Positions 1-32,142 of a stretch of 64,000 nt of DNA are shown piece by piece. The notes below the pieces were generated by a model that was not told the DNA's origin, did not search any database, and saw nothing but the letters and a program-made list of their open reading frames with translations. The DNA comes from an uncultured delta proteobacterium (GTDB lineage Bacteria > Desulfobacterota > Binatia > UBA9968). The position numbers and the translations under genes are program-made. The stretch spans positions 128,001-192,000 of the forward strand of contig CAVWLW010000059.1 in the NCBI GenBank assembly GCA_963755715.1. The letters run 5' to 3'. Position 1 is the stretch's first letter. Each line of letters begins with the position of its first letter.

Positions 1-2
1 AA

Positions 3-194
3 CGCCCGATCTACGTCGTCTATCCGCCGGCGGCGCAAGTTCCCGAGCGGGTGCGCACCTTCGTCGAATTCTTGGCGAATTGGTTTGGAAAGACGGTCCC
101 GGTGAAATTAACGCTTGTCGCGGAAAAGAAAAATGTTCGCTCAAGGCGCAGCCGAGAGCCGGTTCAAGCAAGCGTAGAGAAAGCTTCGTCTTAG
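3..194 (+). CDS. C-terminal end of a LysR-type regulator (truncated by window edge)
   Basis: Frame 3 reads RPIYVVYPPAAQVPERVRTFVEFLANWF...*, typical of the LysR substrate-binding domain C-terminus; TAG at 192-194. Confidence 0.7.
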   Translation, partial: RPIYVVYPPAAQVPERVRTFVEFLANWFGKTVPVKLTLVAEKKNVRSRRSREPVQASVEKASS

Positions 195-252
195 AATTGA
201 TCGGCTGATCGTCGCGGCAAAACAGATCTGTAATTTGTTGATTAGCTCTGTC

Positions 253-1299
253 TCAATGGAAACCATAGAGAGCCTGCGGGTTGTCTCCTAAGATCTTATC
301 GATCGACGTAGCAGCGACCTTCCCGTCCGCTTTGAGTTTCCTCAGCGCGTTGATCTCCGTGGCGGTATCGTTATGGCCGTAGTCCGTTCCTATGACTAAA
401 TGGTCATCGCCCACGTGTTCTAGAATATAGGGCAGATCATCGCTCGTTTGGCAGGCGACATAGATATGATTCTCCTTGAGGAGTTCCTGATCGCGCCAAG
501 CCTTCCCTTGCCTGCGGACGCCGATCTCCATGTGGTTCATCACGTAGGGAAGCCACTCGGCGCTGACCTCGACAAAAGCCCAGCGTAAGTCTGGAAATTT
601 TTGCGGCAGCCGAGTGCCGATAAGACTGGCGAACAAATTGATCGGGCCGAACTTGAATTGGGCGAGACTGGCGCCCCGGCCAAAGATGTCGAACATCTCC
701 AAGTTTCCCTGGGAGGCGTGCACACAAATCGGCATCCCCAACCGGCTTGCCTCTTCGTACAGAGGAAAAAAATAGGGGTCGGTGGGAAGCTTGTCCCCTT
801 CCACTCCGCGTATAAAAACACCGCAGGCGCCGTTCTGTTTGCCGAAGTTCAACTCTTCGATGGCTTTGTCCATGTAGTGCAGCGGCGGAATCACCACCCA
901 GCGCAGCCGACCTTTGCCGGCCTGCCAAATATCCGCGAGCCAGCGGTTGTAACTCTTGCATAGCGCCGCATCGACGTGCGGCAAGGCTGTCATCATTCTG
1001 AGAAACAGGCTCGGATAAAGCACCTGAACGTCCACGCCGAGATCATCCATGTGGGCGAGCCGGGCTTCTATATCCGCCGCCTCGCGCTTCTCTTTGGGGA
1101 TGTCAAAACCGATGTTGCTGTCCTTCGCGAAAACCCGACCGCCGATCATCCAGTATTCGCTCGCCCTCTGACCCGAAGGCTTCTGTGCCGCGTCTTTGAA
1201 CACCATGACACGCGGCCTAAAGGCCATCTCGCTTTCATCCATGTACTCCCAGGTTCGCTCCCATTCGACGACATGCGCGTCAGCATCGATCACCGCCAT
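253..1299 (-). CDS. Amidohydrolase family 2 protein
   Basis: IDADAH metal motif, YN.WL, CVH, IGTDYGH. Confidence 0.9.
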   Translation of the reverse strand: MAVIDADAHVVEWERTWEYMDESEMAFRPRVMVFKDAAQKPSGQRASEYWMIGGRVFAKDSNIGFDIPKEKREAADIEARLAHMDDLGVDVQVLYPSLFLRMMTALPHVDAALCKSYNRWLADIWQAGKGRLRWVVIPPLHYMDKAIEELNFGKQNGACGVFIRGVEGDKLPTDPYFFPLYEEASRLGMPICVHASQGNLEMFDIFGRGASLAQFKFGPINLFASLIGTRLPQKFPDLRWAFVEVSAEWLPYVMNHMEIGVRRQGKAWRDQELLKENHIYVACQTSDDLPYILEHVGDDHLVIGTDYGHNDTATEINALRKLKADGKVAATSIDKILGDNPQALYGFH

Positions 1300-1535
1300 C
1301 GGCTTGCTCCTTCTTTCTTATGGATTTACAACCACACTGTTAGGGCTGCGCGACCCATGCTGTCAAGTGCTGCGGAAGGGACGGTTTACCGCGCCGCGAA
1401 TTTGACCCTAGATAACGTTGAACGGCTTGAGGTCTTCGACTACGCTCACGACAGGCTTCGCAAAGCCGTTGTACGCTTGAACATTTTAAATGATCTTGAT
1501 TTGCCTATGGCCTCACGCCTCGTGCCTATGGATTC

Positions 1536-2407: not shown

Positions 2408-2629
2408 CTAAACCAGAGCCACAAATTCTTCCACTGTAATGCCTGCACCACGGATCAGAGCGCGGAGCGTTCCTCTGTCGAGCTCTCGATGATCGGGCAC
2501 CGACAGATGACGGCCGTTTGGATGATGCAGGATGATGTGGCTCCCCTTTTGGTGGTGGAAGATAAACCCGAGTTTCCCGAACGCTTTGACCGCGTCGCGG
2601 CCGGAGATAACAGGCAGCGTGGCCATCAA
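2408..2629 (-). CDS. hicA: HicA-family toxin
   Basis: LPVISG..AVKAF..LGF...HQKGSHIIL...LSVPDH.EL.RGTLRALI. Confidence 0.9.
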   Translation of the reverse strand: MMATLPVISGRDAVKAFGKLGFIFHHQKGSHIILHHPNGRHLSVPDHRELDRGTLRALIRGAGITVEEFVALV

Positions 2630-2841
2630 GCGGCGACGCTGATCTCGACAATATCGGGGGAGGGAATGGGTAGATTTTGTGCGCGACGTACCTCGATAAT
2701 CCCCTCGATCGCTTCCCGGATGTTTTTAAGCGCCTCTTCTCTGGTCTTTCCTTGAGAGACGCATCCTGGAAGCGTAGGGCATTCGGCCACAATATAGCCG
2801 TCTTCCCCGGGACTCAGCGTTACGATGTACGTCTTTTCCAT
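2626..2841 (-). CDS. hicB: Short HicB-family antitoxin
   Basis: GYIVAECPTLPGCVSQGKTREEALKNIREAI; overlaps the hicA start by 4 nt. Confidence 0.9.
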   Translation of the reverse strand: MEKTYIVTLSPGEDGYIVAECPTLPGCVSQGKTREEALKNIREAIEGIIEVRRAQNLPIPSPDIVEISVAA

Positions 2842-2991
2842 AGCGCTAAATACTAACATTTTCCCTATTTCGATGCGAATAGGGTTGGCGACGTTGAGGG
2901 TTGTTAACTAAATTTCAACGGAATTTTTAACGTTTGTCGGCTTGTGACGGCAACCGAGTTTCATTATAAACGGGTGGCCAAGGAACAACTG

Positions 2992-4065: not shown

Positions 4066-4083
4066 ACTAACGTTGCTGCAAAC

Positions 4084-4253
4084 AAATCCCAAATCCGAAA
4101 TCCGAATATCGAAATCCGAAACAAAGTCGGAGGCAAATAAATCTCAAATCGGCAAAAACCAAATCACTCAACCCGAAGGAAGCTTGTTTTGGTTTGCCTA
4201 TTTTGGTCATTTGAAATTGTTTCGAATTTCGGATTTCGTGCTTCGAAATTTTT
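4084..4253. repeat. Palindromic element built of AAATCCG-like heptamers
   Basis: AAATCCGAAATCCGAATATCGAAATCCGAAACAA on the left mirrors TTGTTTCGAATTTCGGATTTCGTGCTTCGAAATTT on the right. Confidence 0.7.
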
Positions 4254-4279
4254 GTTAAGCATACGAGGAGGAGGACAGT

Positions 4280-5254
4280 TTGGCAGATTCGAACGAACCT
4301 AAAAATCGTGTAGTCGGCAGAGATACAATTAGGTCGCGACTGGTGCTCGAGGTAGCCTCCGAGCTGGTCGATCAACCGCAGTGGCGCTACCGACAGACGC
4401 GCGTCAACCTGCGCGAACAAGGCGGCGACGGCTGGCCGATCGCTCTTTTCGGCAGCGACAGCCCGGCAGCGATCGCGCAAGTCGCCAGCGGCGAGGTCCA
4501 GGTAGCGATGATCAATCCCGCCGCCCCGCTTGCTCTCGCCTTGCGCGGTAAAGGACCGTTTCGAGAGCCCATCGCGCTGCGCGCGATCGCCGTCGTCCCC
4601 TCTCCGGATCAGCTCGCGTTTGCCGTCACCAAACAAACCGACGTGCAATCGCTGCGCGAGCTGCGTGAGCGCCGTTTGCCATTGCGGGTCTCCATTCGCG
4701 GGCAGATGGATCACTCTCTTCATCTGGTAGTGAAAGAGGTTCTTTCAGCGGCGGGTTTCTCACTGGAAGACATTACTTCCTGGGGCGGACAGGTACGCTA
4801 CGATCCAGGTCTGCCTAAAGGACCGAACCGCCTCGGCGCTATGCAGCGCGGTGAGGTCGATATGATTATCGACGAAGCAGTGCACAACTGGCTCAACGTC
4901 GCGTTGGAATCGGAGATGCATGTTTTGCCACTGGACGAATCCATGTTGACGCAGCTCGAGACCTTGGGATTTCAGCGCGCCGTGTTGCCGAAAGCGGATT
5001 ACCCGAAATTAGATTCTGACGTGCCGACTTTGGATTTTAGCGGGTTCCCGGTCTACACCCACGCGAACGTGCCGGACTCGATCGTGACCGCTGTATGTGC
5101 CGCGCTAGAAGCGAGAAAAGAAAAAATCATCTGGCAAGAACCCGGGCCACTGCCACTCGAAAGCATGTGCCGAGATACGCCGTCAGGACCGCTCAACATC
5201 CCACTGCACTCCGCCGCGGAACGATTCTGGCGCGAGCGAGGCTATCTGAAATAA
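4280..5254 (+). CDS. TAXI-type TRAP solute-binding-fold protein without an obvious signal peptide
   Basis: C-terminal IPLH.AAERFWRERGYL; periplasmic binding fold motifs; RBS GAGGAGG before TTG. Confidence 0.7.
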   Translation: MADSNEPKNRVVGRDTIRSRLVLEVASELVDQPQWRYRQTRVNLREQGGDGWPIALFGSDSPAAIAQVASGEVQVAMINPAAPLALALRGKGPFREPIALRAIAVVPSPDQLAFAVTKQTDVQSLRELRERRLPLRVSIRGQMDHSLHLVVKEVLSAAGFSLEDITSWGGQVRYDPGLPKGPNRLGAMQRGEVDMIIDEAVHNWLNVALESEMHVLPLDESMLTQLETLGFQRAVLPKADYPKLDSDVPTLDFSGFPVYTHANVPDSIVTAVCAALEARKEKIIWQEPGPLPLESMCRDTPSGPLNIPLHSAAERFWRERGYLK

Positions 5255-5327
5255 TTGTGGCCGCCGAATCTAAGATTCGCAAGAATAGAAAGACTGAGTC
5301 CGCCGATTCCCCCTTAAATCGCTGATC

Positions 5328-6014
5328 ATGCTCGAAGAGGACTTAATCCAGATTGCCGGAGTGATCGACGCGGCTGAGGCGCAAATGCTTCAGCAATGCG
5401 GCGTTCGCTATCTGGGATTTCCGCTGCGGCTCCCCGTTCACCGCGAGGATCTCACCGAGGAAGCGGCGGCGGCGATCATCAAGAGCCTGGCGCCCCCAGT
5501 ATTCGGAGTGCTGATCACGTATCTCTCTGAGGCGAGCGAGATCGCCGCCTTCTGTCATGCGCTCGGCGCCCGGATCGTGCAGCTCCACGGCGACATCGAC
5601 CGTGATGAGCTGAAGCGTCTAAAAACTCTCGATCCGAACTTGACGGTGATCAAAAGCCTGGTCATCGGAATGCGCGATGACAAAGCTCTCGAACCAATGG
5701 TGAGCGAGCTGTCGCCGTTCGTCGATGCGTTCATCACCGACACCTTCGATCCAACAACCGGCGCATCGGGCGCCACCGGCAAGACTCACGACTGGCGCGT
5801 GAGCAGGCGACTGGTGGAACTTGCCGATCGACCGATTATTCTCGCCGGTGGACTGACGCCCGAGAACGTCAAGCGAGCAATTCTCGAAGTACGGCCGGCC
5901 GGAGTCGACTCCCACACCGGCGTCGAAGACTCCACCGGCCGCAAGAGCCGTGAAAAAGTCCAAAAGTTCCTGTCGGAAGCGTATGAAGCTTTTGCGCTCG
6001 TTAAAGCAAAGTAG
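5328..6014 (+). CDS. trpF: Phosphoribosylanthranilate isomerase, copy 2
   Basis: Near-identical to 1536-2222, same length (228 aa), about 9 amino-acid differences. Confidence 0.85.
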   Translation: MLEEDLIQIAGVIDAAEAQMLQQCGVRYLGFPLRLPVHREDLTEEAAAAIIKSLAPPVFGVLITYLSEASEIAAFCHALGARIVQLHGDIDRDELKRLKTLDPNLTVIKSLVIGMRDDKALEPMVSELSPFVDAFITDTFDPTTGASGATGKTHDWRVSRRLVELADRPIILAGGLTPENVKRAILEVRPAGVDSHTGVEDSTGRKSREKVQKFLSEAYEAFALVKAK

Positions 6015-6257
6015 CGATGAACACGAAGTGGGGTTCATCTTTTGTTGAGAGTTAGGAGCCAGAGCTTCATTGAAGTTCGGGCAGCGAGAATTTCGTCGCG
6101 GACCAAACGTCAGCTGGGAGAGTTTTTTGAGCCATAACCAACAACAAAAAATTTGATCCGTTACCCGTCAGACTATAAAAGCTAAGAGCGGATTTGACCC
6201 CTTTCACAAACCGCCCATGGCCCGCGGGTTTAGCCACCCGCACAGAAAGGAGTTCAT

Positions 6258-7322
6258 ATGAGAAGGAACTTTGCGCGCGTCAGCCGGTCTCTATCGTTCA
6301 CCGTGATATGTGTCCTGCTATTCGGCTCGCCGAGCAAAGGTCAGGAGGAGTCGTTCTACAAGGGAAAGACGCTCAGGGTTATCGCCGGTACGACTGCCGG
6401 AGCTCTCTACGACCAGTGGGCGCGTGTTATTGCCGCCCACATGGTCAAGCACATCCCCGGAAACCCTCAGGTCATCGTTCAGAACATGCCGGGCGCAGGC
6501 CACCAGATCGCCGCCAACTATCTTTATAATGTAGCAAAGCCCGACGGGCTTACGGTGATCGGCTCGATCCTCCCAACTCTGTACCTGGATCAGCTCATCG
6601 GGCGCGCGGAGGTCAAGTTCGACTGGGGAAAATTCCTCTTCATCGGCTCGCCGGTAAAGGGTGATAGTCAGCTGATGATGCGCGCCGATGCGCCCTTCAA
6701 AACCATCGAAGACATGCGAACCGCCAAGGAGCCGGCCAAATGCGGCGGCACCGGCACGGGCGGCGCAGAGTTCATGTTTTCTCGTCTGCTGGAGGAGACT
6801 TTTCCTCCGCTGAAGATCAACGCGGTACTGGGTTATCCGGGTGGGCCGGAAATCGACCTAGGTATCGAGCGGGGAGAGATACAGTGCCGCTCCTTTACGA
6901 TTGAGGCCTTTTTCGCCCGTGAGCCTTATCACACATGGCGTAAGAAGGGTTTCGTGCGTATTATCGTTCAAACCGGCCAGGCGCGCGACCCCAGGCTCCT
7001 CGATGTCCCGACTATGTATGAAGTCATGGATCAGCAAAAGACGCCTGATCTTGCACGCAGACTCGCCAGAGTGGTTCTCGTCGGCGGTACTCTTGGCCGT
7101 CCAATGCTGGCTCCTCCGGGGGTGCCGCCGGAGCGTTTGAAAATTCTCCGGGGCGCTTTCGTCAAGACCATGAAAGATCCGGAGTTTTTGGCTGAAATCG
7201 AGAAGAGAAACTACGAGTTGGACCCGACGCCAGGCGAAAACCTCGAGGCCATTGTGAAAGATGTCATGTCACAACCACCGGCGATCATAGAGAGACTGAA
7301 GATGGTCTTGGTGGCGAAGTAA
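6258..7322 (+). CDS. Bug/TctC substrate-binding protein
   Basis: FYKGKT, HIPGNPQVIVQNMPGAG, KPDGLT. Confidence 0.88.
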   Translation: MRRNFARVSRSLSFTVICVLLFGSPSKGQEESFYKGKTLRVIAGTTAGALYDQWARVIAAHMVKHIPGNPQVIVQNMPGAGHQIAANYLYNVAKPDGLTVIGSILPTLYLDQLIGRAEVKFDWGKFLFIGSPVKGDSQLMMRADAPFKTIEDMRTAKEPAKCGGTGTGGAEFMFSRLLEETFPPLKINAVLGYPGGPEIDLGIERGEIQCRSFTIEAFFAREPYHTWRKKGFVRIIVQTGQARDPRLLDVPTMYEVMDQQKTPDLARRLARVVLVGGTLGRPMLAPPGVPPERLKILRGAFVKTMKDPEFLAEIEKRNYELDPTPGENLEAIVKDVMSQPPAIIERLKMVLVAK

Positions 7323-7627
7323 TTCCGCAGGGATGCGCATCGGCGCCACTTATCCTGCTTCATGGTAGCGGTGCGGCGCCGGGCACGGACGGCGGCCTTG
7401 GCGGCCGCGTCCATCCGCAAACCGCCCTGGGCAAGTGGCGCGTCCTAATGCGACGGTGCGGCGCTCGCAAGTGCAGTTGAACTCAAAAGCGGCTGTGCGG
7501 GATGAACGAAACAAAAAGCGAAGAACGTCTAAAAATAAAACTCTAACGTTTGATCTCTATCGAGAGATAGAGCATCAAACGAGCAGCTCTAATTGTCAAC
7601 AAGAGATTTGACCCTCTGGGATTTTCG

Positions 7628-7770
7628 GAGGCGAGGCAAGAAAAAATCGTTTGGCAAGAACCCGGACCGCTGCCGCTCGAAAGCATGTGCCGCGATACGC
7701 CGTCAGGACCACTCAACATCCCACTGCACCCCGCCGCCGAACGATTCTGGCGCGAGCGCGGCTACCTGAC
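7628..7770 (+). pseudogene. Orphan 3' fragment of the TAXI gene
   Basis: Translates EARQEKIVWQEPGPLPLESMCRDTPSGPLNIPLHPAAERFWRERGYL, matching 5108-5250. Confidence 0.9.
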
Positions 7771-7802
7771 TGAACCCGGCGCGGCTGCTGAAGTTATTCC
7801 CC

Positions 7803-10800
7803 TTAGCGAAGTGCTGTGTTTAGGATGACCGCCTTTATCAGCTTCCCCTGGTTAGAAAGCTGCGAAGCCTGAATATCGAACTTTTTTTGAGCTTCTTCGA
7901 CAGTGAGATTGGAGGCTTGTTTTTTCCTGTAATCAGCATTGTCCCATTGGTCGCACAGTCGAACCACGCCACCAGATACATTCCATGCTTGCAGTTATTG
8001 TCCGTTAATATTTACCTAAGAGCTGAGTCTCCATGGCGTTATCTAATTCCCGGTTCCAGCATCCTTTTGCTTCAATGATGACGGTTATCGAATCGTATGA
8101 ATCCTTCTTTTGTCCGAGTTGAATGGCGGTAACGTTGGGATATGGGTTCGTTTTTCGTTTGTGAATTCGGTTTTTACTCTATTGAAGATAATGCCACGAC
8201 GTTTCAGGTCATCTTCCAAGTGTAATTTCACAAGTCACAAAACGAACCTTCTTCTTTTGGACAATGCTTGTCCCACAAAAACTGGGTGTTTCTCCCTGAA
8301 GCTTGATTTCAAGCCGACTTAGGGATTCAATTATTGGTCAAGCAATTGATCGCCATTCTGCACGAGCGAACTCTTCATCGCTGGCTAACTTGAGAACATC
8401 GGTAGGCTTCAACGGTACCCACGTAAGCCGGCGCGCTACCGCTTCCGCGTCGAACAGTGTCCACTTGAGCCATGTAAGTTCAGGCAACTGTTCTTTAATT
8501 CTGCGGGATTGCATCACACGCCCGAAGCGTCACCTTTATATTGAGATTCTCTAAAATTGCGTCCCTCCAGTGCGCCATGCTTTCCCGAGGTGAAACCGCG
8601 CCTGTTCCATCTCTTTGCGGGTCTTCCGATTGTGGATATTGTCGGGATAACCAAATATACAGTTCAGACAATTGATCCTCATCCAGCTTTTCCCATATTC
8701 CTGTTCTACCACCCCAACCTTCTCTCTGAGCGACGATTATGACGATCTCCTTACCGAGTTCAGCAGAGCTTAGTATAGCTGGCCATACGATTGACCAGCC
8801 TGCATCTTTTGAATGCATCACCAAAACGCGTGCCGCTACAACTGCTTTAGATTGTTTATCGCTTTCTGACGCTACCGGCGTAGATAGGAACGATTTTGCA
8901 AAAGACTCTGCATCTTGAACGCCATGATCGATGAGGGTTTCTAACAACACTCCCATATTTTCAGGCTTTAAGTTTTCGTCCCGAGTCTTGCTCATCAAAG
9001 CCATCGCCAAACGCCGGTCCCAACAACTTTCAACCTTACGGTGGATAGAAATATGGCCAGGATCACTAATATTTTCTTTATCAATCAAGAAAAGCAGGCT
9101 TTGAATGATTTCATCAGACGAAAAATCGTAAGCTAACTTTACACAATGCATGATGGGGTCTTCAGCGTCACTTCCACTTCGAGTCGGATAGGCCAGAATA
9201 TTGGCGCCACTTTTCCAGATTTCGGCAGGCAACTTTGATATGAAATCAGTATCATCTCTCGACGGTGGCAATACCCTATATCCAGCATACGCCGACCGAT
9301 ACGACGATTTCAGTCCCAAGCCACTTCGGTGTTTCAGGGTCCTGCTCCACCAAATAGGTTTTCGCGGTTTCCACAATTCTTTTTCTAATGTCTGGACCGA
9401 CTTAGCCCACCCCGGGAAGAACAGTTCGAATAGGATTCGAGTACGTCATAGGGATCATAGTGCGTACTGTCCCGCTTAAGCGTCATTTCCAGATTAAGGC
9501 GCCACCAGTGCGTTGTAGTCTCCGGATTCGAATTGATCAAGAAGTCGCTCTATTCGCGTTGCTAGCGGTGGATCGAGTAGAGGCCGATCATGACCCTCTT
9601 TGTTCCATTTCTGCCATCTTTGATAATCGGCCTTCATCGTTTCCGCGTTGAGATCCAATTCAACCGGGTTGATGAGCCAATCCAATTCTTCGGACAAACA
9701 TTTCTCTCGATCGCAAGCCGTCAGAACTGCATCCACCTGTCGGCCATCTGTCCGGTCAAACGACCTGCTAACTAGTTGGCACCAGATCGATTTTTCTATC
9801 CCAATCCCAGACATCGCCAATTGATCTAACATCCACATCACGTCCTCCCGAAAAGCTATCAGAGATACACTGTCGACAATTGTTGTTGCATCTTGCTCTG
9901 ATCCACATTCATTATGAATTATCATCGGGAGCAACTGCTGCCGTCTTGAATGATCTTGTCGTAATTGTTGATGAATCGACTTTTTGCGTCGATCGTCAAG
10001 CAAGTTGTCGTAATGTTTTCCGTCGCGAAAACGTAGCCTGGCAAAAGCCTCTAACACTCCAGGGAAGTCTAAGTGTTGCCACCCCATCATTAAATTGCGT
10101 CAAGAAGCTCTTTGAATGAATGGCACAGTTTTATCTTGTCCCCAGTGTTGTCGTCCACGATAAGGCATCAGGAAGATCGGAAGCTTGGAGGGTCTGCGGG
10201 AGGTCTGTCTCTAAAAACTTACGATATGCACCGATCAGATTCGATCGCTTAGGCACTGTTAGCAAAGAGAACAAGTCTCTAGAGCTAACATGGCTTGGCC
10301 ATACTGCCTGTAGACCGCATCCTTTCAATTCGTCGTCGGGATCGTCTCCAATTTCACCAAAAGCAAGGGGCTTGAGTTTCGTTTTCGTCTGGTCGTCGCC
10401 AATCCGCCCTACAGCGTAGGCGGCGTTTACACGCGCATTGATTGAGTCGGTCAAATCTAAGGCAACATAGGCAAGAACATCTTGAAGCTGCCGTACGTTG
10501 CAAACCGCCGCAATATCCACTGCAACTCTTCGAACAACAACTCCTTTTGTCTGATCAGTGATGTATGGCTTGAGCTGTTCAGTCAATTCCGGATGAGTAA
10601 GCTTGTCGTAACGGGTTCGTACACTCAAGTCGCAGTCTAACAACTGTTCTTTGTCGTATAGTTCTAATAATGTTCCTACCAATGCGATACGATCCCTCGT
10701 GTCAGCAGCAGTCACATCGCTACTTAGCAGCACCGCCGGGTCTGTCTTAATAATCTACCGGAATACGACAGGTTCCATCCCAGCCAACCAAGCGGCCGTT

Positions 10801-11988
10801 TCATGAAGTTGAGGAACCAGCTTGCCATCGCTAGCACCCGCATGTACGAACACGCTCATCATTTGGGTTCGCGTCATTTTTCGCTGGATCAAATAGCTAG
10901 CAGCAAGAAACTCTGCATAGGTCTGATGCGCCCATCCCATTCTGTCTGTTCCGCGCGAAGAAAAGAGCCCGGTATCCAGAGCTTCCCGAATGGCTGCCTC
11001 ACTGACCTCAAATTCGTTAGCGTCGACGCTCTCTTTGCCGCCACACAATTCGGAAATTGTTACGTCTTCTCCCGGAACGTCTCCTCGATCGACGGCAGTC
11101 CAAATTGCGTACCGATTTGTGAATATTGTGAGAGCTGCCATTCTCGAAGCTATGCTCACACGTTGTTTCGCATCGAGGAACCCGGCAATTCGCACGACGA
11201 CTGTCGCTCGTCTCTTCACATAACAATCGGCAACCTTCCAGATAAAGTTCGCTCTGCGTTTTTGGAAACTGCCCGTGGCGATTGTATGTATTGAGCAGGA
11301 ATTGAAGGGTAACGGGTTTGATCGCTAAAGGAACAACTTCTCTATTTACGATTTCCGTTAAAAACCCTCCTGGCTCGACTCTATTGGTTTTCGCAGCTTC
11401 AATGATATCGACCCTGCGGAGAGGAGCTAGCTCGTATACTTTAAAAGCCTCGTCTCCCCACAACCTCATCAATCCTTGCTCCAAAGTAGTTGGCCAATCC
11501 GCTATCCGTAGTGCGATGCGCAAATGCAGGCAATCAATGGGATATTTTGGCAGCTCCTCCACAAGCAAGGCTGCGACAGTATCAATCCTCAGTAAGCACT
11601 CGTCTAGACTGTCAAGAAAGAGATGTAAGTTTTGGCTTCCACTTAACCAAGATTTGAAAACAGGTGCGTCAAATATCGCTTGTATAAGTCGGACATCGGT
11701 TTGGTAAGCTCGGAGGTCTACCCATAACGATATGTCTCCTTTTCCACTAATCTCCTCATCGATGCGTGCCTTCTGGCCTTGCACACTCGTAGATTTGCCC
11801 ATTCCAGGCTCTCCGAGAAGGATAAGACATGCAAATTTGGAAATATCTTATTCAAAGGGTACTGCGTCAGGATTGTAAAGTGATCCGTATTTTGAATCTG
11901 GGTTCCATAAAAACCCGTCGTCGGACAAATTTAACTTGCCGTCCCTTGGACACCAGAACCGCTTCCAGTTATAAAAGTTAGCTGGCAT
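7803..11988 (-). pseudogene. Disrupted ~1390-codon NACHT/STAND NTPase with HEAT-like repeats and a C-terminal PD-(D/E)XK-like domain
   Basis: Walker A LLGEPGMGKST, Walker B LFLDSLDE, WAHQTYAEFLAA, HEAT-like ARVNAAYAV, C-terminal VIIEAKGCWN and HGMYLVAWF; in-frame stops at 11848-11850 and 10755-10757 plus several frameshifts; visibly AT-richer than flanks. Confidence 0.8.
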
Positions 11989-12290
11989 GAATACCCTCTC
12001 TGCTGTTTTCTCTATTTGAATTGCGCACTTTAACACAGAATCACTAGGGAATATGACTTGAAATGGAAAAATCTAGGAAAATGGGGTCAGAGGAAAGAGG
12101 AATCACGTGACCTCCCCTCTCTTCATCAAGGGGGGTGATTTGGGGTCGTGCTTTCTATTCTCGACAATCTTGGTTGCAGCAATGAATGGGATGGCCACTG
12201 GCGCTGTCTTTGATATTCGGGCAACAAGCGGGAGAGGAAATGCGCAGACCGCTATCGATATCGGGACGTCACTCCTGACTCATGTTCCCT

Positions 12291-14194: not shown

Positions 14195-14263
14195 GCGGTA
14201 CTCCTACGGTAACACTAAGACCGAGCACGGAGCACGATCACCAACATGGCCCGCGCCTTTCTT

Positions 14264-14370
14264 CTATCTAAACTCCGGCTCTTGCAGGACTTCTCTGAGC
14301 AGACTCATATCGACGCCTTTGCTCGGGTCGATCGGTCCTTGCAACGCGCCTAATAACTGGCCGGCGTCGA
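14264..14370 (-). repeat. Direct repeat of the last 107 bp of the SBP gene at 15128-16102
   Basis: 7 mismatches in 107 bp, identical 34-aa translation DAGQLL...EPEFR*. Confidence 0.95.
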
Positions 14371-14405
14371 CGCCAACCGCCCGGTCCGCCAAAGTTAACA
14401 TTCCC

Positions 14406-14434
14406 TTGAAGCCATTGAACCGCGACGATACAAT
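14406..14434 (+). promoter_or_regulatory. Sigma70-like promoter for vapBC
   Basis: TTGAAG-N17-TACAAT followed by a GGAGG RBS. Confidence 0.55.
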
Positions 14435-14457
14435 GCCTCCATCCAGATGGAGGCCAG

Positions 14458-14679
14458 GTGGAAGAAGCAAAAATTTTGAATAAGGGGCAGCTGATCATTC
14501 CGATCCACATTCGCAAAAAACTCGGGCTGAAACCTGGGGACGCCGTCAAACTCTTTGATTATGACGGTGCGCTCCACATCATCCCTATTTCTAAAAATCC
14601 GGTAAGAGAAAGCATTGGCATCCTGCCGCGTAGGCCATCCCTCAGCAAAAAACTCTTGAAGGATCGGGCAAGGGAGTAG
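14458..14679 (+). CDS. vapB: AbrB/MazE-type antitoxin
   Basis: KILNKGQLIIPIHIRKKLGLKPGD. Confidence 0.85.
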   Translation: MEEAKILNKGQLIIPIHIRKKLGLKPGDAVKLFDYDGALHIIPISKNPVRESIGILPRRPSLSKKLLKDRARE

Positions 14680-14683
14680 CTCC

Positions 14684-15082: not shown

Positions 15083-15127
15083 TTCGCATTGAACGAAGAG
15101 TCATTCGGCGTTCCTCGAACGACCAGT

Positions 15128-19295: not shown

Positions 19296-20187
19296 CTACG
19301 CATTGCCGACGAACAAATTCATCGCGCCGATGTTTTCGATTTCCGCCTTGAGCTTTTCGCCGGCGACGAGCTTGCGTTGAAACGCCGGCGAGTCGGGATT
19401 GCCCGTTGAGATCAAATCGCCTGGCAACAGCGTGGTGACTTCCGACAGAAAGCTCACCAGCTCCGCGACGCCGTTAATCATGCCGCTGGTATTGGCCGAC
19501 TGGCGCAACTCGCCGTCGATCCAGAGATTCATGGTTAAATGATGCGGGTCGGGAATCTCGTCGCGGGTCGTGATCCACGGCCCGATGGGCGCGAAGGTTT
19601 CGAATCCTTTACGCACCGAACGGCAAGAGCCGACGCCGGTGCCGGGAGGGTTGGGACCGCGCGCGGTCATGTCGAGCATCACGGTATAGCCAAAAACGTA
19701 ATCGAGCGCGCTAGTTTTCGGCGACGTTTCTCGCCTCCTTGCCGATGACGACGCACAATTCCAACTCCGGGTATACGACTCTTTCCCCCTTGGGGATCAG
19801 GATCGTTTGCTCCGGGCCGATAACCGCCGAAGACGGTTTCAGAAATGTCATTTCGAGGGCTTGCTCGGGCGTAAACTTCAGCGTCTCGCCGCGGCCGGCG
19901 GCGTCTTTGATATCGCTCGTGCCGCGCTTGTAATTGAAAGCCGCCGCCCAAATCTTCGACGGCCGTTCCACTGGCGGTTTCAGCAGAGCGGGATCCAGTC
20001 CGACTCTTTTGGCCGTTGAGACTACGCTTCCCAGGATGTTCTTGACCGAGTCATAGTGGGCGATGAAATCGATCATGGACGCTCGCTGCGAAAGAAACCC
20101 CTTCTGCGCCAATATCTCTCTTATTAGAACAAGTTCCTCGCCGTCTACGATCGCGAGTTCATTTGGTTTTATCGAGGCAACGCGCAT
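19296..20187 (-). CDS. Fumarylacetoacetate hydrolase family protein, frameshifted near 19715
   Basis: FLKPSSAVIGP, ELELCVVIGK, KGFETFAPIGPWI, LLPGDLISTG. Confidence 0.85.
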
Positions 20188-20425
20188 TTCAAGTCCTTAT
20201 TTAGCGAATCTGGTTTTCAAGAACGAGATGATATTATTCACCCATAGCCAATGTCATCCCGCGCGGGGCGGTGTCAAGAGCGCGATTCATCTCGAAGCTG
20301 CTCCCATACAACATCTCGTTCCGCGCTCTCGCGCACTTCCACCGGTGCCTATAGTGAAATGAAGTTTGCTGCCACAAGCCGACAAATGCTAAACACTTTG
20401 ATAAAATTTAGTTAACAAATGGTGA

Positions 20426-20548
20426 GTGGTTTACCCACCTGTGGCGCGTGTCCTGAACGGGTACGCACCTTTGGAGACTTTTTAGCGGCTTGGTTTGGGA
20501 ATGCTGCTGCGAATTAAATCAAAGCAGAGGTCGGAGAAGAAAAATGTT
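20426..20548 (+). pseudogene. Decayed copy of the LysR 3' end seen at the window start
   Basis: VVYPPVARV/ERVRTFGDFLAAWFG and shared AAGAAAAATGTT versus positions 15-137. Confidence 0.75.
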
Positions 20549-20704
20549 GGGCGAGAACAAGACAAAGATCCGCGGCCCGTCCGATCCGCGCTAGGAAGCA
20601 TATGATCGACTAAGCTACGGAGGATTCGGAGTCCCACGCGGGGACGATGTGGAGTCAATGCTGATTTCCATGAACACGCATCTTGCGGCGACTTGTTCGT
20701 TTTT

Positions 20705-21887
20705 ATGATTAGGAAGATTCTGATTGCTGGCGCCGGGATTGGCGGCCTAACGGCGGCTTCCTGTCTGATGAAGGCGGGCTATGACGTCGAGGTCTATGAG
20801 CAGGCACCGGAGTTGAGCGAGATCGGCGCCGGCATACAGCTCAGCGCCAATGCGATGCATGTTCTTAACGACCTCGGTCTTGGCAAGGCAATTGCCAAAT
20901 TGTCGGTTCGGCCCGGCGCTTATGTCTTTCGACTCCATGATACCGGCGAGATCATCGGCCAGTTTCCGCTCGCCGATGAGCATGAGAGACTGAACGGCGC
21001 GCCGTACAATCAACTCCACCGGGCTGACCTTCACGATTTGCTCGCTGCCAAGGCACGAGACTTTAATAAGGACGTCGTGCGGCTGAACCGCCGGGTCGCG
21101 GGCTTCGAAGAAAGTGACGCCGGTGTCGAGTTGTTCTTCGCGGATGGCTCCAGAGCCAGAGGCGATCTTTTAATCGGCGCGGACGGCGTCAAATCCGCAG
21201 TGCGCGCCCAGATCGCAGGTGCAGACCACGCAACGTATACCGGCGATGCCGCTTGGCGCTTGACGCTCCCCACCGATCAGCTGCCAGAGCAATTTCATGG
21301 GTGAAGTCATGTCGGTGTGGATGGGCCCCGGACGACACGTGGTTTGTTACTATCTCCGGGGCGGCGCTTTGCTGAATTTCGTGGGTTTGGTCGAGACCGA
21401 AGATATCTCGGAGGAGTCATGGACCGCCAAATTCCCCTGGGAGCGGCTAAAAGCGGATTTCGCGGGTTGGCACGAGAACATTCAGAGCGTCATCGATCGG
21501 GCCGATAAGGACTCGTGCTTTCGCTGGTCGCTCTACTACCGGCCGCCGATCGCAACGTGGAGCACCCGGCGCGCGACATTGCTCGGCGATGCGGTTCATG
21601 CGACGTTGCCTTACCTCGCCCAGGGCGCCTGCATGGCGATCGAAGACGCCGCCGTGCTAACGCGCGCGCTGCAGTCGACCAATGTCGTAGCCGACGCTCT
21701 ACAACTGTACGAACGCAACCGGATCGATCGGACCTCGCGCATCGTCAAGGGGTCGGACGCCAACCGCACGCTGTTTCACATGCGCGATCAGGAGAAACTT
21801 CGCCAGGCTTTTGCGGCGCGCGACGAAGGAGCCGATCGGAATGCTTGGCTCTACTCTTACAATCCGTTGACCGTGACGCTCACGTGA
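20705..21887 (+). CDS. Salicylate/3-hydroxybenzoate hydroxylase-like flavin monooxygenase, frameshifted near 21295
   Basis: GAGIGG, EIGAGIQL, LIGADG, LLGDAVH..LP..AQGACMAIED. Confidence 0.85.
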
Positions 21888-26392: not shown

Positions 26393-27463
26393 ATGATGAA
26401 AGCTTTAAGCTTATCGACTGTTTTTATCTTGGCGGTTTTGTTTTTGAGCGGGCATGCGCATAGTCAAACTGACGCGGAGGGAATCCTCGCGAGCGTCAAC
26501 GCCCTGCCGCCGAAACAAAGAATGGAAGTCTTGATCGCGGAGGCGCGCAAAGAAGGCTTTATTGAGTGGTATGGCTCGCTCTTGGTTCCGGAAGCCACAC
26601 AGATTATCGAAAAGTTCAGACAGCGATATCCGTTCGTTGAAGTCAAATATTCCCGCGGTAGCGGGACACAGGTCATCAATCGATTTCTCACTGAGTCTAA
26701 GGCGGGTTCTTACCGAGCCGACGTCATCGGTGCCCGGACTAACTTCCACCCCACCCTGATGAAAGCGAATCTAGTGGCGAAGAACCTTGCGCCGTTTCGA
26801 CAGGAGCTCCGCGAAGGCTTTATCGACAAAGCCGGCTACCTTCTTGGCCAGCACACTTTCGGCCTGGTGATCGGCTACAACAATAGAAATATTCCGCCCA
26901 ACAAGATTCCCCAGTCTTATCAAGATTTGCTCAACCCGGAATGGAAGGGACAAATGGGCCTGGACATCGAGTCTTACGACTGGCTCGCCGGCGTCCTCGA
27001 CACCATGGGAGAAGAGAAGGGGATGGATTTTGCCAAGAAACTCGCGGCGCAGAGCGTCCATGTCCAACGCGGCCATTCGCTGTTGATGCAGCTCGTGGCG
27101 GCGGGCGAGTTGAAACTGGAGATCGACAGCTATCACTATCAGATTAGCGAGTTTAGAAAAAAAGGCGCTCCCCTCGATTTATCCATTCCCGATCCGATGG
27201 TGGTCAAAGAACCGAGCGGAATTTGGATTCCCAAGCGCGCTCCGCATCCGCATGCCGCTGCGTTGCTCGTCGACTTTCTTTTTTCGCGCGAAGGGCAGCA
27301 AATCCTCGCCGGCCTTTCGGTCCTCGTCGCCAGAAAAGATATTGCGTGGGACTTCGGCGGGAAGCCGGTCAAAGGCATCCACGTTCTTTCGGCTGAGAAG
27401 TGGGGGTCGAAATACAACGATCTCGCGCGCCAGTTCGATGAGATATTCCGTAAAGCTAAATGA
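26393..27463 (+). CDS. ABC extracellular solute-binding protein
   Basis: EARKEG, DLLNPEWKG, APHPHAAALLVDFLFSREGQ. Confidence 0.85.
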   Translation: MMKALSLSTVFILAVLFLSGHAHSQTDAEGILASVNALPPKQRMEVLIAEARKEGFIEWYGSLLVPEATQIIEKFRQRYPFVEVKYSRGSGTQVINRFLTESKAGSYRADVIGARTNFHPTLMKANLVAKNLAPFRQELREGFIDKAGYLLGQHTFGLVIGYNNRNIPPNKIPQSYQDLLNPEWKGQMGLDIESYDWLAGVLDTMGEEKGMDFAKKLAAQSVHVQRGHSLLMQLVAAGELKLEIDSYHYQISEFRKKGAPLDLSIPDPMVVKEPSGIWIPKRAPHPHAAALLVDFLFSREGQQILAGLSVLVARKDIAWDFGGKPVKGIHVLSAEKWGSKYNDLARQFDEIFRKAK

Positions 27464-27678
27464 AACGGTAAGCAAAAAAGGGGGGAAACGAACTCTTAGA
27501 GGTTTTTCTCACCGTCGCAAGAGAGCGCTAGCTGTACCCTGACATAGTCACGTTGCTATTAACCGCTGTAAGATTCACTTTGCTAAAACAGAGTCAAAAA
27601 AGTTGGTTGACTGCCTTCGGAGTGGGTGATACGAGCGGGCATTGAGATCTATCAGTCAGGAAAAGAGGGGAAATTTCA

Positions 27679-28787
27679 ATGTGCCGTTTCCTGATCATGC
27701 TCGGGACCGTATTATTTCTCTCCTTAGATTCCGGTTTCCCGCTAATGACTCTGGCCGCCACGCCTGAGTTCATGGGATTCTCTTCTTGCCAAAGCGCGGG
27801 CGGAAGGAAGTGTAACAGTTGCGGGTCCGGGTACAGTGAGCGCCCGGCGTTCACTGACAAAGCCATTCGAAGATCGTTTCGGTATTCGAGTTGAGTACGA
27901 CGGTAGCCGCGGTTCAGACCAGAGAACACAGATCATCAACCAACGGGCGGCAGGAATATATCAAGCGGATTTGTGGATCACGGGTTTCGGCACCTTCGAA
28001 GGCCTCGACGTCCCATCGTTTTTCGAGCCTTTGGAACCGCTATTGCTGCTTCCAGAGGTGAAGGATCCCAAGACTTGGCTTAACGGATATTTGTGGCATG
28101 ACGCCAAGGACCGGCGAATCTTTGGCCATTCTGCGAGACTTTTTGGTGGCCTCGCCGTAAATCCCCAGAATATCAAGGCTGATGCGGTGACCTCGCTCAA
28201 AGACCTGCTGAGACCCCAGTACAAAGGTAAGATTATTTCCGATGACGCGAGAGTTGCCGGAGTAGGCCAGGGGTTTTTTACTTATCTTTACATGGGAAAG
28301 GAATTTGGCTTTGGGCCAAGCTTCATAAAGAAACTGATTGAAGAGCCAGGATCTTATTTTTACTCGGAACTCTAGGCAGGCAGCCGATTGGATCGCCAAT
28401 GGGCGATACTTATTGTGGCCTGCCCCTGATACGCGGCCGGTTGCCGAACTTATGACCAAAGGAGTCCCCATAGAGCACCGGTGCCTAGAAGATGGACAAT
28501 GGCTCTCCATGGGCAGCGGCGGCGTGGGGCTGTTCAACAAGGCGCCGCATCCTAGTGCAGCAGGCATCTATTTGAATTGGCTCCTGAGCAAGGAGGGACA
28601 GGCTCATTATGCCGAAGGAGGAGACACGGCGAGTCGCAGGCTTGATGTACCCGCGAAGATCACTCCTTGCTTTGTGCCGAAAGCGGGTAAGAATTATTTC
28701 TGGGTTGATAAGCCGGAAGCGCTTGAGATGAGAAAACCAGGCGGGGAACTGGTGCAATTTTTAAAATCGATCTACACCGGAAATTGA
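27679..28787 (+). CDS. ABC extracellular solute-binding protein with at least two frameshifts
   Basis: Fragments 27679-, 27836- and 28338- join into one SBP (DLLRPQYKGKI, APHPSAA..YLNWLLSKEGQ). Confidence 0.75.
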
Positions 28788-28848
28788 CGACGGACATTCA
28801 TTCTCGGAAAAATTTATTTTCTGCAGCGCAGCTGAGAGGAGGATACTT

Positions 28849-29943
28849 ATGGGGCTGATAATCGATGCCGATACGCATGTCGCGGAGTCGGAACAAATGT
28901 GGGCGTTGTTGGAAACACAGGTTTACTCTCGACGGCCAATCATGATGCGTGTTCCCGACGACACCGTTTACGGATCGAGCAATGCCTTTTGGTTGATCGA
29001 CGGAAACATCGCTCCAAAGCCGGCCGGCAAAGGCGGAAACCGGCTGATTACTCCCTCGGCGTCCAAACAGCGAGCTCATCGAGGACGGATATACCTGTCG
29101 AATCCAGAGAACTGACGGAGCCAACGTTTGCGTCTTAAAGACATGGACCGGCTCCATGTCGATGTACAGGTAGTTTATCCGACGCTTTTTCTGGTTTATC
29201 TGACGGATGACGTGGAATTAGAAATCGCCTTGAGCAAGGCTTACAACCGGTTCATGAGCGAGGCTTGTTCAAATGACGGGCATCGCTTGAGGTGGGTGGC
29301 GGTCCTACCGCTGAGGTCCGTTGAGGATTCACTCAAGGAGATAAAGTGGGCCAAGGATCATGGTGCAGTGGGGCTGTTCTTCCGCGGCCTTGAGAAGGAC
29401 CGCAATTTGGACGATCCCTATTTTTTCCCGGTGTACCAGGCGGCCATGGATCACGACCTTTCCATTTGCATACACACGGGGGCTGGCTCACCGGTGATGT
29501 CGAGCCTGTTCAACGTTGACCGTCATTCGGTATTTTGTCATGGCAGACTTCTTCCCTTGATCGCGTTCAGGAACCTTGTGGCCAATCGCATACCAGAACT
29601 TTTTCCGACCCTAAAATTCGGCTTCATAGAAGCGTCCGCCGGCTGGATACCCTTTCTACTCCACGCTTTAAGAAGACAGTTCCGTGGGAGATGGTCGGAG
29701 TTGTCGAGCCCGGAGCTGTTTCAGAAATACCGGTTCTACGTGGCTTGCGAGGCCGACGAGGACGTTGCGTATTTGTCGCAATATATAGGGGAAGATAATC
29801 TGATCATCGGCTCCGATTACGGCCACAACGATCCTTCGGAGGAAGGTGACCTTGTGCGTACGATAAGGGCCCGTGAGGATATCCCCGCGCGTATGGCTGA
29901 AAGAATTCTTTCCGATAATCCAAAACGGTTCTATAACTTGTAG
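28849..29943 (+). CDS. Amidohydrolase family 2 protein, frameshifted near 29080
   Basis: IDADTH then YNRF, CIHTG, IGSDYGH; paralog of 253-1299. Confidence 0.85.
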
Positions 29944-30171
29944 AATATTTTTGGGCTGAATGACTTTTGCTGGAAAACGTGGAGTACCGAGTATCAGTTG
30001 GGAGAGGTATGGCCATTGCAGCGCTAGCCAGCGGCTCATGATCAGCCGGTTCTCGTGTACTCACGTGCAAGTGAATGAGTTTGACGCGAGAGGCGATGTA
30101 TTAGCTATTCGAGATCTAATGGCCAAAAGTAACAGGGCCATCCAGATCGCCATGCAGTTTGCGACCGGGAC

Positions 30172-31935
30172 ATGCATCTCATGGATGAAGTCCGACAGGT
30201 GACCGGTCTTAGGCCGGCTGAAAGTAACAGATATTTCCATCTATTTGCCAAACTAAATCCCACCACGCTTCGCTTCGTATTACTCATAGCGATCATCGCT
30301 TGCTTCACCGCATACCCGATTGCGCTGCTTTTTTTGAGTAGTTTCCAGGTTAGCCCGCCGGGACAACCGATCGCGTGGGGCCTGGAAGGATGGCGGATGG
30401 CGTTTAGCGATGCCGCGGTGCCAAAAGCGCTCTGGAATACTTTCGTCCTCGGTTTTACCCGCGTAGCAATTACTACTGTATTATCGGTTTTTTTCGCATG
30501 GGTGATTACCAGAACAGATACACCGGGCAAGGGCTTTATCGAGTTCATGCTCTGGCTCGGCTTTTTTCTGCCTTTGCTTCCAATGACGTTGGGATGGATT
30601 TTGTTGCTGGATCCCAATTACGGCATTCTCAATAAGCTGATCGTAAATTGGCTTGGACATTTCTCGCGGTCCCTTTCAACATATATTCCTACGGCGGCAT
30701 TATTTGGGTGCATCTTGCCTTTAGCACGTGTGTCCGCGTTATACTCTTAACACCCGCCTTCAAAGCTCTTGATGCGACTTTGGAAGAGGCGGCTCACGTG
30801 GCCGGTAGCAGCGCGCATTACAACGCTGACGCGGATTACGGTTCCGGTATTGATGCCCGCGGTCTTCGCGACAACGATGTTGAGCTTCATCAAGAGCATG
30901 GAGTCGATGGAAATTGAAATCGTGCTGGGCGTTCCCGCCCGCATTTTTGTATTCTCAACCTTAGTGTGGGACTACACGCACTTTCAGCCTCCGGCTTACC
31001 ATTCCGCGACGGCCCTCAGCAGCATTTTTCTGGTGGCCGTCTTTGGTCTCATCTGGCTGCAACGAATGATTCTCGGTACGGCCGTGAATACACAACGGTC
31101 GGCGGCCGCGGTTATTCGGTTCGCGTCGCGCGCATAGGACGCTGGCGTTGGGTCGCCTTCGGCTTTTCGGTTGCTTTCATCTTCGTCATGATAGTCTTAC
31201 CGATGGCTGTTCTGGTCGTGGGTACGTTTATGAAGGCCTTCGGCTATTTCTCTATTCCACGAACCTTGGACTCTCAATAACTGGTCAGGGGCCTTTGCTG
31301 ATCCGATCTTACTGCGCTCCTTGCGTAATACCTTGATTTTAGGAGTGGGCGCGGGTGGACTTGGGGCGCTCCTTTACGCAATTCTGGGCTATAACATTGT
31401 CCGCTCACGGGTCATGGGGCGTCAAGTGCTGGAGTTTCTCGCTTGGCTGCCGTGGGCATTGCCCGGAGTACTGATTAGCTTAGCGCTTCTGTGGGCGACA
31501 TTGGGAATCGGGAAGGCCGTTACGCCGCTCTACGGGACACTTTATTTATTGGTCTTGGCAATCATGATCAAGGAACTTCCGTTGGGCACACAGATTGCCA
31601 AAGCGAGCGTCATGCAAATCGGCAAAGAGCTCGAAGAGAGTTCGTTTGTGAGCGGAGCTTCCGGCCCCCTTACCTTCTGTAGGATCATTATTCCTTTATT
31701 GCTGCCGGCGATACTGGCGACCGCTCTGGTGGTATTTGTCTCGGCGGTGCGTGACATTCCCGTGGTGATATTGCTTTCTTCGCCATCGTCGAGACCTCTT
31801 TCTCTACTGATGTTGGATTATATGATGGCCGCTGAAACTGAAAAGGCTACAGTGATCGGAGTATTCGTTGTTTTCATAATTATCGTGGTCGCCTTAATCG
31901 TACGCTTCTTCGGACTAAAAAAGCACATCGACTAG
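30172..31935 (+). CDS. FbpB-like ABC permease (two EAA loops), several frameshifts
   Basis: Hydrophobic helices, LEEAAHVAG and LEESSFVSGA EAA motifs spread over successive frames. Confidence 0.8.
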
Positions 31936-32060
31936 CTCGGCGTCACTCGAAGTCGCAAACCGTAAAACCGCCGGTCATAAATTACATTTAGCTTTCCCGA
32001 GTGTGCGGCGCTTTCCTTTCGCGCTAGTCTAGCAGGTTGCTGAAAAAAGACACTCGTGCT

Positions 32061-32142
32061 TTCCGTAAAGCTAAATGAAACGGTAAGCAAAAAAGGTGGA
32101 ACGAACTCTTAGAGGTTTTTCTCAGCCGTTGCACGAGAGCGC
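32061..32142 (+). repeat. Direct repeat of 27446-27528 (SBP stop region and downstream DNA)
   Basis: TTCCGTAAAGCTAAATGAAACGGTAAGCAAAAAAGG...ACGAACTCTTAGAGGTTTTTCTCA at both sites. Confidence 0.92.

Follow-up and report, generated by a model that had tools for sequence, protein, structure and literature searches.

Possible insertion scars without a recombinase beside solute-binding protein genes of an uncultured Binatia genome

How do second copies of the 3' ends of solute-binding protein (SBP) genes come to lie downstream of the intact genes, with other genes in between? The question is raised by a 64-kb stretch of DNA from an uncultured Binatia genome (hereafter, the window), and here we examine it in the region from about 1 to 32 kb. 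An initial annotation of this DNA had cited five repeat pairs (LysR, trpF, TAXI, NMT1-type and ABC SBP) as instances of one recurrent architecture, in which an intact gene is followed by a cargo and then by a diverged copy of the gene's own 3' end. Self-BLASTN of the window recovers four of the five pairs, at E-values between 1e-27 and 0; the LysR pair falls below the reporting level of E<1e-3 but is real at a lower level of similarity. The architecture itself fits three of them (TAXI, NMT1-type and ABC), whereas trpF is a whole-gene pair and the LysR sequence an unrelated fragment. In these three pairs an intact gene is followed, in the same orientation, by an orphaned 3' end, and the placement downstream and in the same orientation holds for the LysR fragment as well. 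The three repeat-bracketed blocks are real and look like recombinase-free insertion scars of a kind already described. What follows leads us to infer entry of the cargo, as opposed to loss of a second gene copy, and also the route of recombination; insertion by way of a short gene-end homology arm or duplication carries somewhat less than half of our belief and is favoured tentatively.

The first block belongs to an intact TAXI-family TRAP solute-binding gene (4280-5254, plus strand; Pfam NMT1_3, NCBIfam TRAP_TAXI). The last 142 nt of the gene (5108-5249) recur on the same strand at 7628-7769 as a remnant of 47 in-frame codons, the two copies being 90.1% identical over 142 nt (self-BLASTN, E 1e-49). 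The repeat has a sharp start at codon 277 and extends to the stop codon, which is mutated from TAA to GAA in the remnant. Between the copies lies cargo 1 (5255-7627, plus strand; Pfam PRAI and TctC), made up of a trpF-like gene, a gene for a Bug/TctC-type binding protein (Bug2, 6258-7322, plus strand) and a 305-nt spacer.

The second block belongs to an intact NMT1/SsuA-type solute-binding gene on the minus strand (15128-16102; Pfam NMT1, with NCBIfam SsuA_fam below its cut-off). The last 108 nt of this gene (15127-15234, minus strand) are repeated in a 3' remnant at 14264-14371, also on the minus strand, which holds 36 codons including the stop and encodes residues identical to those of the intact gene at 35 of 36 positions. 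Self-BLASTN aligns 14263-14370 with 15127-15234 at 93.5% identity over 108 nt (E 2e-40); the repeat starts abruptly and ends 4 nt past the stop codon. An upstream extension of the remnant, to which TBLASTN gave 68 aa, was rejected as credible only for the last 36. Cargo 2 (14372-15126, plus strand) holds a toxin-antitoxin pair of the vapBC type that converges with the SBP gene and is composed of a MazE/AbrB-type antitoxin gene (14458-14679, plus strand; Pfam MazE_antitoxin) and a PIN toxin gene (14684-15082, plus strand; Pfam PIN).

The third block lies at an intact ABC-type solute-binding gene (26393-27463, plus strand; Pfam SBP_bac_6/8), which together with 65 nt of 3' flank spans 26393-27528. 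Its left repeat (27446-27528, gene end and flank) and the second copy (32061-32142, plus strand; five codons, the stop and ~65 nt of flank) are 92.9% identical over 84 nt with one indel (self-BLASTN, E 9e-27). Here the reading as a 3'-end remnant stands only in part: the repeat is real, but its coding share is just the last five codons and the stop, and most of it is intergenic 3' flank (~65 nt). No terminator-like site was found inside this repeat. Cargo 3 (27529-32060, plus strand), delimited by TBLASTN and Pfam, is an SBP-amidohydrolase-permease block whose genes are apparently all dead, to judge from their reading frames: a frameshifted SBP gene (~27758-28772), an amidohydrolase gene (28858-29940) with an in-frame TGA at 29113-29115, and an ABC permease gene (30172-31935) broken into several frames, all on the plus strand. 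The TGA stands in an otherwise continuous alignment and is a nonsense change, not an indel, so that at least some of the decay is genuine and cannot be put down to sequencing error.

With lengths of 142, 108 and 84 nt and identities of 90-94%, the three repeats are far beyond chance, and the left copy is each time the end of the intact gene. Mismatches are scattered over their whole length, and no exact run in them exceeds 19-20 nt. The inserts measure 2.4, 0.76 and 4.5 kb (cargos 1, 2 and 3), and their G+C contents are 0.563 (equal to background), 0.511 and 0.517, respectively, against a background of ~0.55-0.57. By eye, the borders of the three cargos share no motif.

The differences between the copies are not those of neutral decay. 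The TAXI remnant and the intact gene differ by 11 synonymous and 3 non-synonymous changes, and the NMT1 remnant and its intact gene by 7 and 1; in the pooled coding remnants 18 of 22 differences are synonymous, where ~26% would be expected under neutrality and ~41% if only the intact copy were selected (P<5e-4). Each remnant thus descends from a copy that was evolving mostly as a working gene, and simple neutral decay in place is ruled out. The neutral substitution pattern that the initial annotation had named as grounds for giving up its idea is therefore not what we find, and its claim that incoming DNA brings its own allele of the 3' end is borne out to the extent that remnant and intact copies are diverged functional alleles.

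Two of the three junctions also occur elsewhere. Open frames crossing the remnant junctions were compared with a protein collection, in which entry P0121 matches the NMT1 junction over 49 residues at 86% identity, spanning the flank on the vapB side as well as the remnant. The final 15 residues of the entry map to window positions 12996-12952 and the rest to 14300-14446, from which it follows that this lineage has lost ~1.3 kb, including the SBP pseudogene at 13053-14228 and the last 12 remnant codons. The TAXI junction is found in P0126, which has the remnant together with eight residues encoded by the flank (84% over 55 aa), and in P0177, which covers 7593-7768 in two frames. Because the TAXI and NMT1 junctions recur in diverged form in independent metagenome entries, they cannot be products of assembly and are not of recent origin; the underlying events are old and shared with populations ~8% diverged. 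A strain-chimeric join in the metagenome assembly, which had been raised as a possible undoing of the whole idea, is accordingly excluded for these two junctions, the recurrence evidence (82-86% aa identity) covering the TAXI and NMT1 pairs of the three. As an account of the blocks such a join is barely credible: exact matches of 19-20 nt are too short to mislead an assembler, and a chimeric join would be expected to collapse a shared segment, not to duplicate it, although the source is an assembly of an uncultured lineage with many frameshifts that may in part be sequencing error.

When P0121 is compared with the window, 23 of 23 residues encoded by the remnant agree, while 7 of 26 encoded by the adjoining flank differ (one-sided P ~0.008, hand calculation), a contrast that hints at constraint on the NMT1 remnant or at gene conversion. 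The TAXI remnant gives no such contrast with its flank between the window and the database entries. Separately, the short database proteins P0169/P0170 and P0176, which come from other contigs, carry ~33 TAXI C-terminal residues behind unrelated N-terminal residues, in a search biased towards 3' ends; they hint that elsewhere there are TAXI 3' stubs truncated at other positions.

The statement that no integrase or tRNA lies nearby agrees with our tRNA, Rfam, Pfam and NCBIfam scans, which found none. There are no tRNA or tmRNA genes and no Rfam matches in the 64 kb, and no recombinase domain in the open reading frames (ORFs) scanned with Pfam (49+38+18 ORFs) or with the NCBIfam set, which covered 7 annotated ORFs and, among the 45 unannotated ones that reach 55 aa or more in 1-34.7 kb, 26. 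Neither Pfam nor NCBIfam places a mobility domain in any of the three cargos. The sole transposase found in the window is a DDE transposase (53469-54782, minus strand; DUF772 + DDE_Tnp_1) in an insertion sequence at 53364-54851 with 32-nt terminal inverted repeats. These scans bear on site-specific integration, in which the repeats would be att sites served by a tyrosine or serine recombinase encoded elsewhere or since lost. Entry at a gene 3' end by an element that restores that end would give the same picture; yet with no recombinase domain in the scanned ORFs of the window, three targets unrelated in sequence, and long repeats with scattered mismatches and exact runs of the length noted above, we consider it very unlikely. 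Two further origins were tried and rejected: positions 1-25000 match none of 72,556 plasmids, and an integron cassette array lacks an integrase among the genes found and a common border motif by eye (no formal attC model was applied).

The reading we favour would run as follows. Three blocks (trpF2 with Bug2, vapBC, and the SBP-amidohydrolase-permease genes) would each have entered beside the 3' end of a resident binding-protein gene, in a recombination that used or duplicated ~100 nt of the gene end. The outcome would be an intact gene, the cargo and an orphaned second gene end, which together appear as a long imperfect direct repeat. The likeliest route would be host recombination on a short homology arm with no recombinase travelling with the cargo, either as Campbell-type entry of a circle bearing the gene end or as a one-sided homologous join paired with an illegitimate join; later allelic exchange of the intact gene could explain why the copies differ mainly synonymously. 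Several observations count for insertion: two cargos have a lower G+C content than their surroundings, all three remnants are downstream 3' ends, and one cargo is an addictive module. The similar, short lengths of the repeats (84, 108 and 142 nt) fit a process that itself sets the length of the arm or of the duplication.

The other account that must be weighed starts from juxtaposed units: the region would once have held two full-length copies each of the TAXI, NMT1-type and ABC SBP genes, and decay would have cut away the 5' parts of one copy and left 3' stubs. The trpF pair shows that near-identical intact duplicates do occur here. As the initial annotation had it, the whole gene is present twice, as two complete 228-codon genes (trpF1, 1536-2222; trpF2, 5328-6014, within cargo 1; both plus strand, both intact and neither a remnant) that lie 3.8 kb apart and align by self-BLASTN (1534-2226 with 5326-6018) at 95.4% over 693 nt, or 96% at the amino acid level. 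Moreover, the order trpF-Bug-TAXI is repeated (trpF1, then Bug1-TAXI; trpF2-Bug2, then the TAXI remnant). Since trpF2 and Bug2 copy the gene order of the upstream unit, cargo 1 is a homologous unit and not arbitrary foreign DNA. Fragments left by deletion at 5', 3' and internal positions, both here and in relatives, and the many pseudogenes, one of them with an in-frame stop not explicable by indel error, also suit this account, as does the synonymous bias if two functional paralogues were truncated recently.

Against deletion stands first the size of the remnants: with random deletion end points in ~1-kb genes, three independent stubs of at most 142 nt would arise with P ~0.001 (hand calculation), and all three would have to be downstream 3' ends. 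The three components of the repeated unit differ widely in divergence, Bug2 being only 29% identical to Bug1 while the trpF genes are 95% and the TAXI ends 90% identical, which does not fit a simple duplication of the unit. For the NMT1 block three events would be needed (duplication, entry of vapBC, deletion) where insertion needs one, and at the ABC block the 65-nt non-coding flank is as identical as the coding part. On balance we regard deletion from juxtaposed units as possible, though doubtful.

The trpF pair itself has the look of another process. The two genes are homologous only over a stretch that opens 2 nt ahead of the ATG and closes 4 nt past the stop, with flanks that cannot be aligned; at the synonymous divergence of the pair, flanks copied along with the gene should still align. 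The two genes differ by 22 synonymous and 10 non-synonymous changes (22 of 32 synonymous), a pattern from which both copies are judged to be under purifying selection. Both score below the NCBIfam cut-offs for TrpF and, on that score, may not be canonical TrpF. The whole-gene trpF pair and the LysR fragment are phenomena apart from the repeat-bracketed inserts. A hicA/hicB toxin-antitoxin pair (2408-2859, minus strand) lies between trpF1 and Bug1, at a place where the second unit has just a 243-nt spacer. A search for direct repeats around hicBA and around the low-G+C island described below gave a single shared 9-mer (2281, 2912), about chance level.

To compare the neighbourhood with that of related genomes, a reference-genome scan with the TAXI protein was used to collect 13 loci with 10-kb flanks (labelled L001, L002 and so on), a set that does not include the source genome itself. 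All come from metagenome-assembled genomes (MAGs) that bear the names Binatia or delta proteobacterium/Deltaproteobacteria, apart from a single Syntrophobacter sp. and a single Eisenbacteria, with a best match of 89% aa identity; the closest relatives of the TAXI protein overall are metagenomic proteins (up to 98% identity), of which the few named ones belong to Candidatus Binatia MAGs. The TAXI neighbourhoods are shuffled in nearly every one of the 13 loci. In L001 and L003 Bug1 and TAXI are neighbours with neither trpF nor Bug2 downstream, and in none of the 13 loci does a trpF-like gene lie within 10 kb of TAXI, which counts for insertion. The only adjacencies shared with the window are Bug1-TAXI and, in L003 and L004, hydroxylase-TAXI, and neither covers an insertion point.

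Several results weigh against insertion. No empty site with a single-copy target was found, the 13 related loci not being syntenic at the three sites, and insertion is to that extent not demonstrated. Self-BLASTN of the same loci (~190 kb) gave no gene-end repeat pair; the repeats there are intergenic hairpins or MITE-like (resembling miniature inverted-repeat transposable elements). The repetition of the upstream gene order by cargo 1 suits tandem homologous units followed by deletion. The synonymous bias argues against a simple history in which a single target was duplicated and then decayed, except where ordinary homologous exchange has since put a diverged allele in place of the intact gene; repeats identical at birth would need this allelic replacement as a second step. 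Synonymous divergence is also uneven (22 changes in 684 nt of trpF, 11 in 141 nt of the TAXI end), which is awkward for a single donor. Finally, deletion stubs are demonstrably common in this lineage: besides the ~1.3 kb lost in the P0121 lineage and at least eight disrupted genes within 1-32 kb, there are an internal Bug fragment in the window, a Bug1 gene reduced to a 5' piece ahead of TAXI in L002 (5-93), and a ring-hydroxylase gene in L003 (3249-3421) of which, directly after TAXI, only the last 32 codons and the first 41 remain, fused to each other.

The internal fragment, 93 nt of a Bug/TctC gene at 44199-44291 (plus strand), is 84% identical to 52076-52168 and sits 7.9 kb upstream of its homologue. 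It breaks the rule that remnants are always downstream 3' ends, a rule to which the three good pairs nonetheless conform. The LysR pair (15-137 and 20426-20548) likewise does not belong to the architecture. It has ~70% identity with indels and one frameshift, and although its local alignment score of 53 compares with at most 24 among 328 control windows and the TBLASTN match over 22 aa has E 3e-6, the second member is a weak, frameshifted fragment 20 kb off. Only the last 63 codons of the LysR gene fall in the window, at its start, with a weak Pfam LysR_substrate match (E 0.029, below cut-off). The decayed 3' fragment of a LysR-type paralogue (20426-20548, plus strand) is probably the product of a simple 5' deletion. 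It lies directly beside one copy of a 53-nt inverted repeat (2901-2953 and 20366-20418, 81% identical, with conserved ends and a small dyad). The first copy is ~40 nt ahead of the likely Bug1 start and the second 180 nt ahead of an FAA-hydrolase-family gene. The element is probably a shared operator or promoter; the LysR site looks like a divergent promoter whose regulator gene was mostly deleted.

In a strict form of the mechanism proposed in the initial annotation, linear DNA from a relative would have been taken up, one of its ends crossing over homologously in a shared gene and the other joining illegitimately within the resident gene, downstream of that crossover, so that the resident 3' end was left behind. 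The topology is feasible and yields an intact gene, a cargo and a resident 3' end, the synonymous bias suits donor and recipient alleles, and in excerpts of PMC5361080 the same is proposed for orphan 3' ends in effector arrays of type VI secretion systems (T6SS) and in Rhs loci. Illegitimate end points would however be expected anywhere, and not three times within 142 nt of a gene end. The sliding identity of TAXI against L001-L003 shows no chimeric break, in a comparison with references 80-89% identical that are too distant for power, and the process is orders of magnitude rarer than homologous recombination according to the same excerpts. Having no reason for an end point near the gene end three times over, this strict version ranks below both the insertion arm and the deletion account, and we think it unlikely. 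Of the broader idea of capture by homology with cargo, the non-neutral alleles speak in its favour, but only three of the five cases fit, an empty site is wanting and cargo 1 is a homologous unit. Nothing points to the trans-acting cassette mechanism that had been offered as a second option.

A bolder form of the insertion arm reading, which we consider improbable, would make the repeat-bracketed blocks mobile cassettes that need no recombinase and pass through their own life cycle of loop-out and re-entry. Host recombination between the ~100-nt repeats would loop out a circle made of the cargo and one gene end; once transferred, the circle would re-enter any homologous gene by the reverse reaction and restore that gene. 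Purifying selection would keep the borne gene end, and this would explain both the synonymous-only divergence and the conserved junctions elsewhere. A vapBC pair carried in this way would amount to a selfish element of the most minimal sort, without an enzyme of its own. If true, this would extend the restriction-modification cycle that the Kobayashi group has proposed, and that was never demonstrated, to an uncultured phylum and to transporter genes.

Around these blocks, the first 32 kb is a heavily rearranged and partly pseudogenised block of solute-binding and catabolic genes. By Pfam, genes for periplasmic binding proteins are crowded in the window (TctC/Bug, TAXI, NMT1/SsuA-like and ABC SBP_bac), together with Amidohydro_2, MetE-like, glyoxalase and aromatic-ring hydroxylase genes. 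Genes split between frames include the SBP pseudogene SBP13053 mentioned above, a ring hydroxylase (16295-17915), the FAA-hydrolase-family gene (19296-20187) and a flavin adenine dinucleotide (FAD) monooxygenase (20693-21887). Inspection of the frameshift sites for homopolymer errors gave no clear pattern, and sequencing error could account for part of them. Directly after the TAXI remnant begins a low-G+C island (~7800-12200; 0.47 against ~0.56 around it) that holds a large minus-strand gene (8495-11802) broken into at least five frames; this gene has weak NCBIfam matches, far below cut-off, to the NACHT antiphage proteins EruA/HyoA, and none to the PADLOC defence-system models. The spacer between Bug1 and TAXI (4086-4250) forms a long imperfect hairpin from short repeated words of the AAATCCGAAAT type, and similar low-complexity intergenic hairpins occur in the related loci L001 (9704-9737 and 12383-12416) and L011 (8697-8761 and 16711-16775). 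In L005 two inverted copies (6896-7064 and 11037-11204; 94%) of a 169-nt MITE-like element with terminal inverted repeats flank TAXI. In the second half of the window a GNAT acetyltransferase paralogue (56612-57066; regions concerned, 55649-57084 and 46349-46888) is frameshifted, with its N-terminal part in frame with the preceding luciferase-like monooxygenase ORF.

If insertion is the true history, the blocks are natural examples of gene gain without a dedicated recombinase in an uncultured soil phylum, one of them with a toxin-antitoxin pair, and they bear on how addictive modules and small operon pieces move between genomes and on the growth of transporter regions rich in paralogues. A practical marker for such events in MAGs would then be a gene end that is orphaned and diverged at synonymous sites only. 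If deletion is the true history, the region is merely an array of genes in decay and serves as a caution.

The closest known parallel is insertion with long target duplication, reportedly described by Nobusato et al. in 2000. Excerpts of the study by Furuta, Abe and Kobayashi (2010; PMC2853133) describe restriction-modification inserts free of mobility genes and bracketed by imperfect direct repeats of 46-423 bp, some of which overlap the last 2-15 bp of a gene, with identities such as 384/412; a cycle of insertion, amplification and release is proposed there, of which release is not demonstrated in those excerpts. The blocks described here share with them direct repeats longer than 30 bp (84-142 nt here), inserts shorter than 20 kb and the lack of integrase and transposase genes, as well as a repeat that overlaps the last bases of a gene (the ABC pair) and an addictive cargo (vapBC here, restriction-modification there). 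Unlike them, our cargos hold no restriction-modification genes, which are a screening criterion in the same excerpts, and the copies differ mostly synonymously, so that a plain duplication would require later allelic exchange.

The hallmark of C-terminal displacement in Rhs loci, for which a circular intermediate is proposed, is in excerpts of PMC2935791 the presence of orphan 3' ends behind the intact gene, and excerpts of PMC5361080 describe orphan 3' ends in T6SS effector-immunity arrays and propose homology-facilitated illegitimate recombination. As in Rhs, CDI (contact-dependent growth inhibition) and T6SS arrays, an intact gene is here followed by displaced 3' ends, growth is additive and an integrase is lacking. 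The displaced tips there are different toxin domains accompanied by immunity genes, whereas the remnants here are 90-94% (nt) and 94-97% (aa) the same as the active ends and belong to solute-binding genes with no toxin/immunity logic.

Homology-facilitated illegitimate recombination was reportedly found in transformable bacteria by de Vries and Wackernagel and by Prudhomme et al., both in 2002. It is also treated, for transformable bacteria, in excerpts of PMC3240628. The point in common with our blocks would be that one-sided homology suffices for the entry of foreign DNA; that process is laboratory-defined, with a known donor. Genomic islands at the 3' end of a gene, in turn, use a site-specific recombinase, and the element restores the gene end. 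The restored intact gene and the partial 3' copy at the far border are the same in our blocks, but no recombinase was found in the scanned ORFs, the targets are three genes unrelated to one another, and the repeats lack a long core of identical sequence. Integration into a gene 3' end with restoration by the element is also discussed in excerpts of PMC2853133. While the features specific to each family are absent here, the architecture matches the descriptions in the excerpts of PMC2853133, PMC5361080 and PMC2935791, and is thus not a new one.

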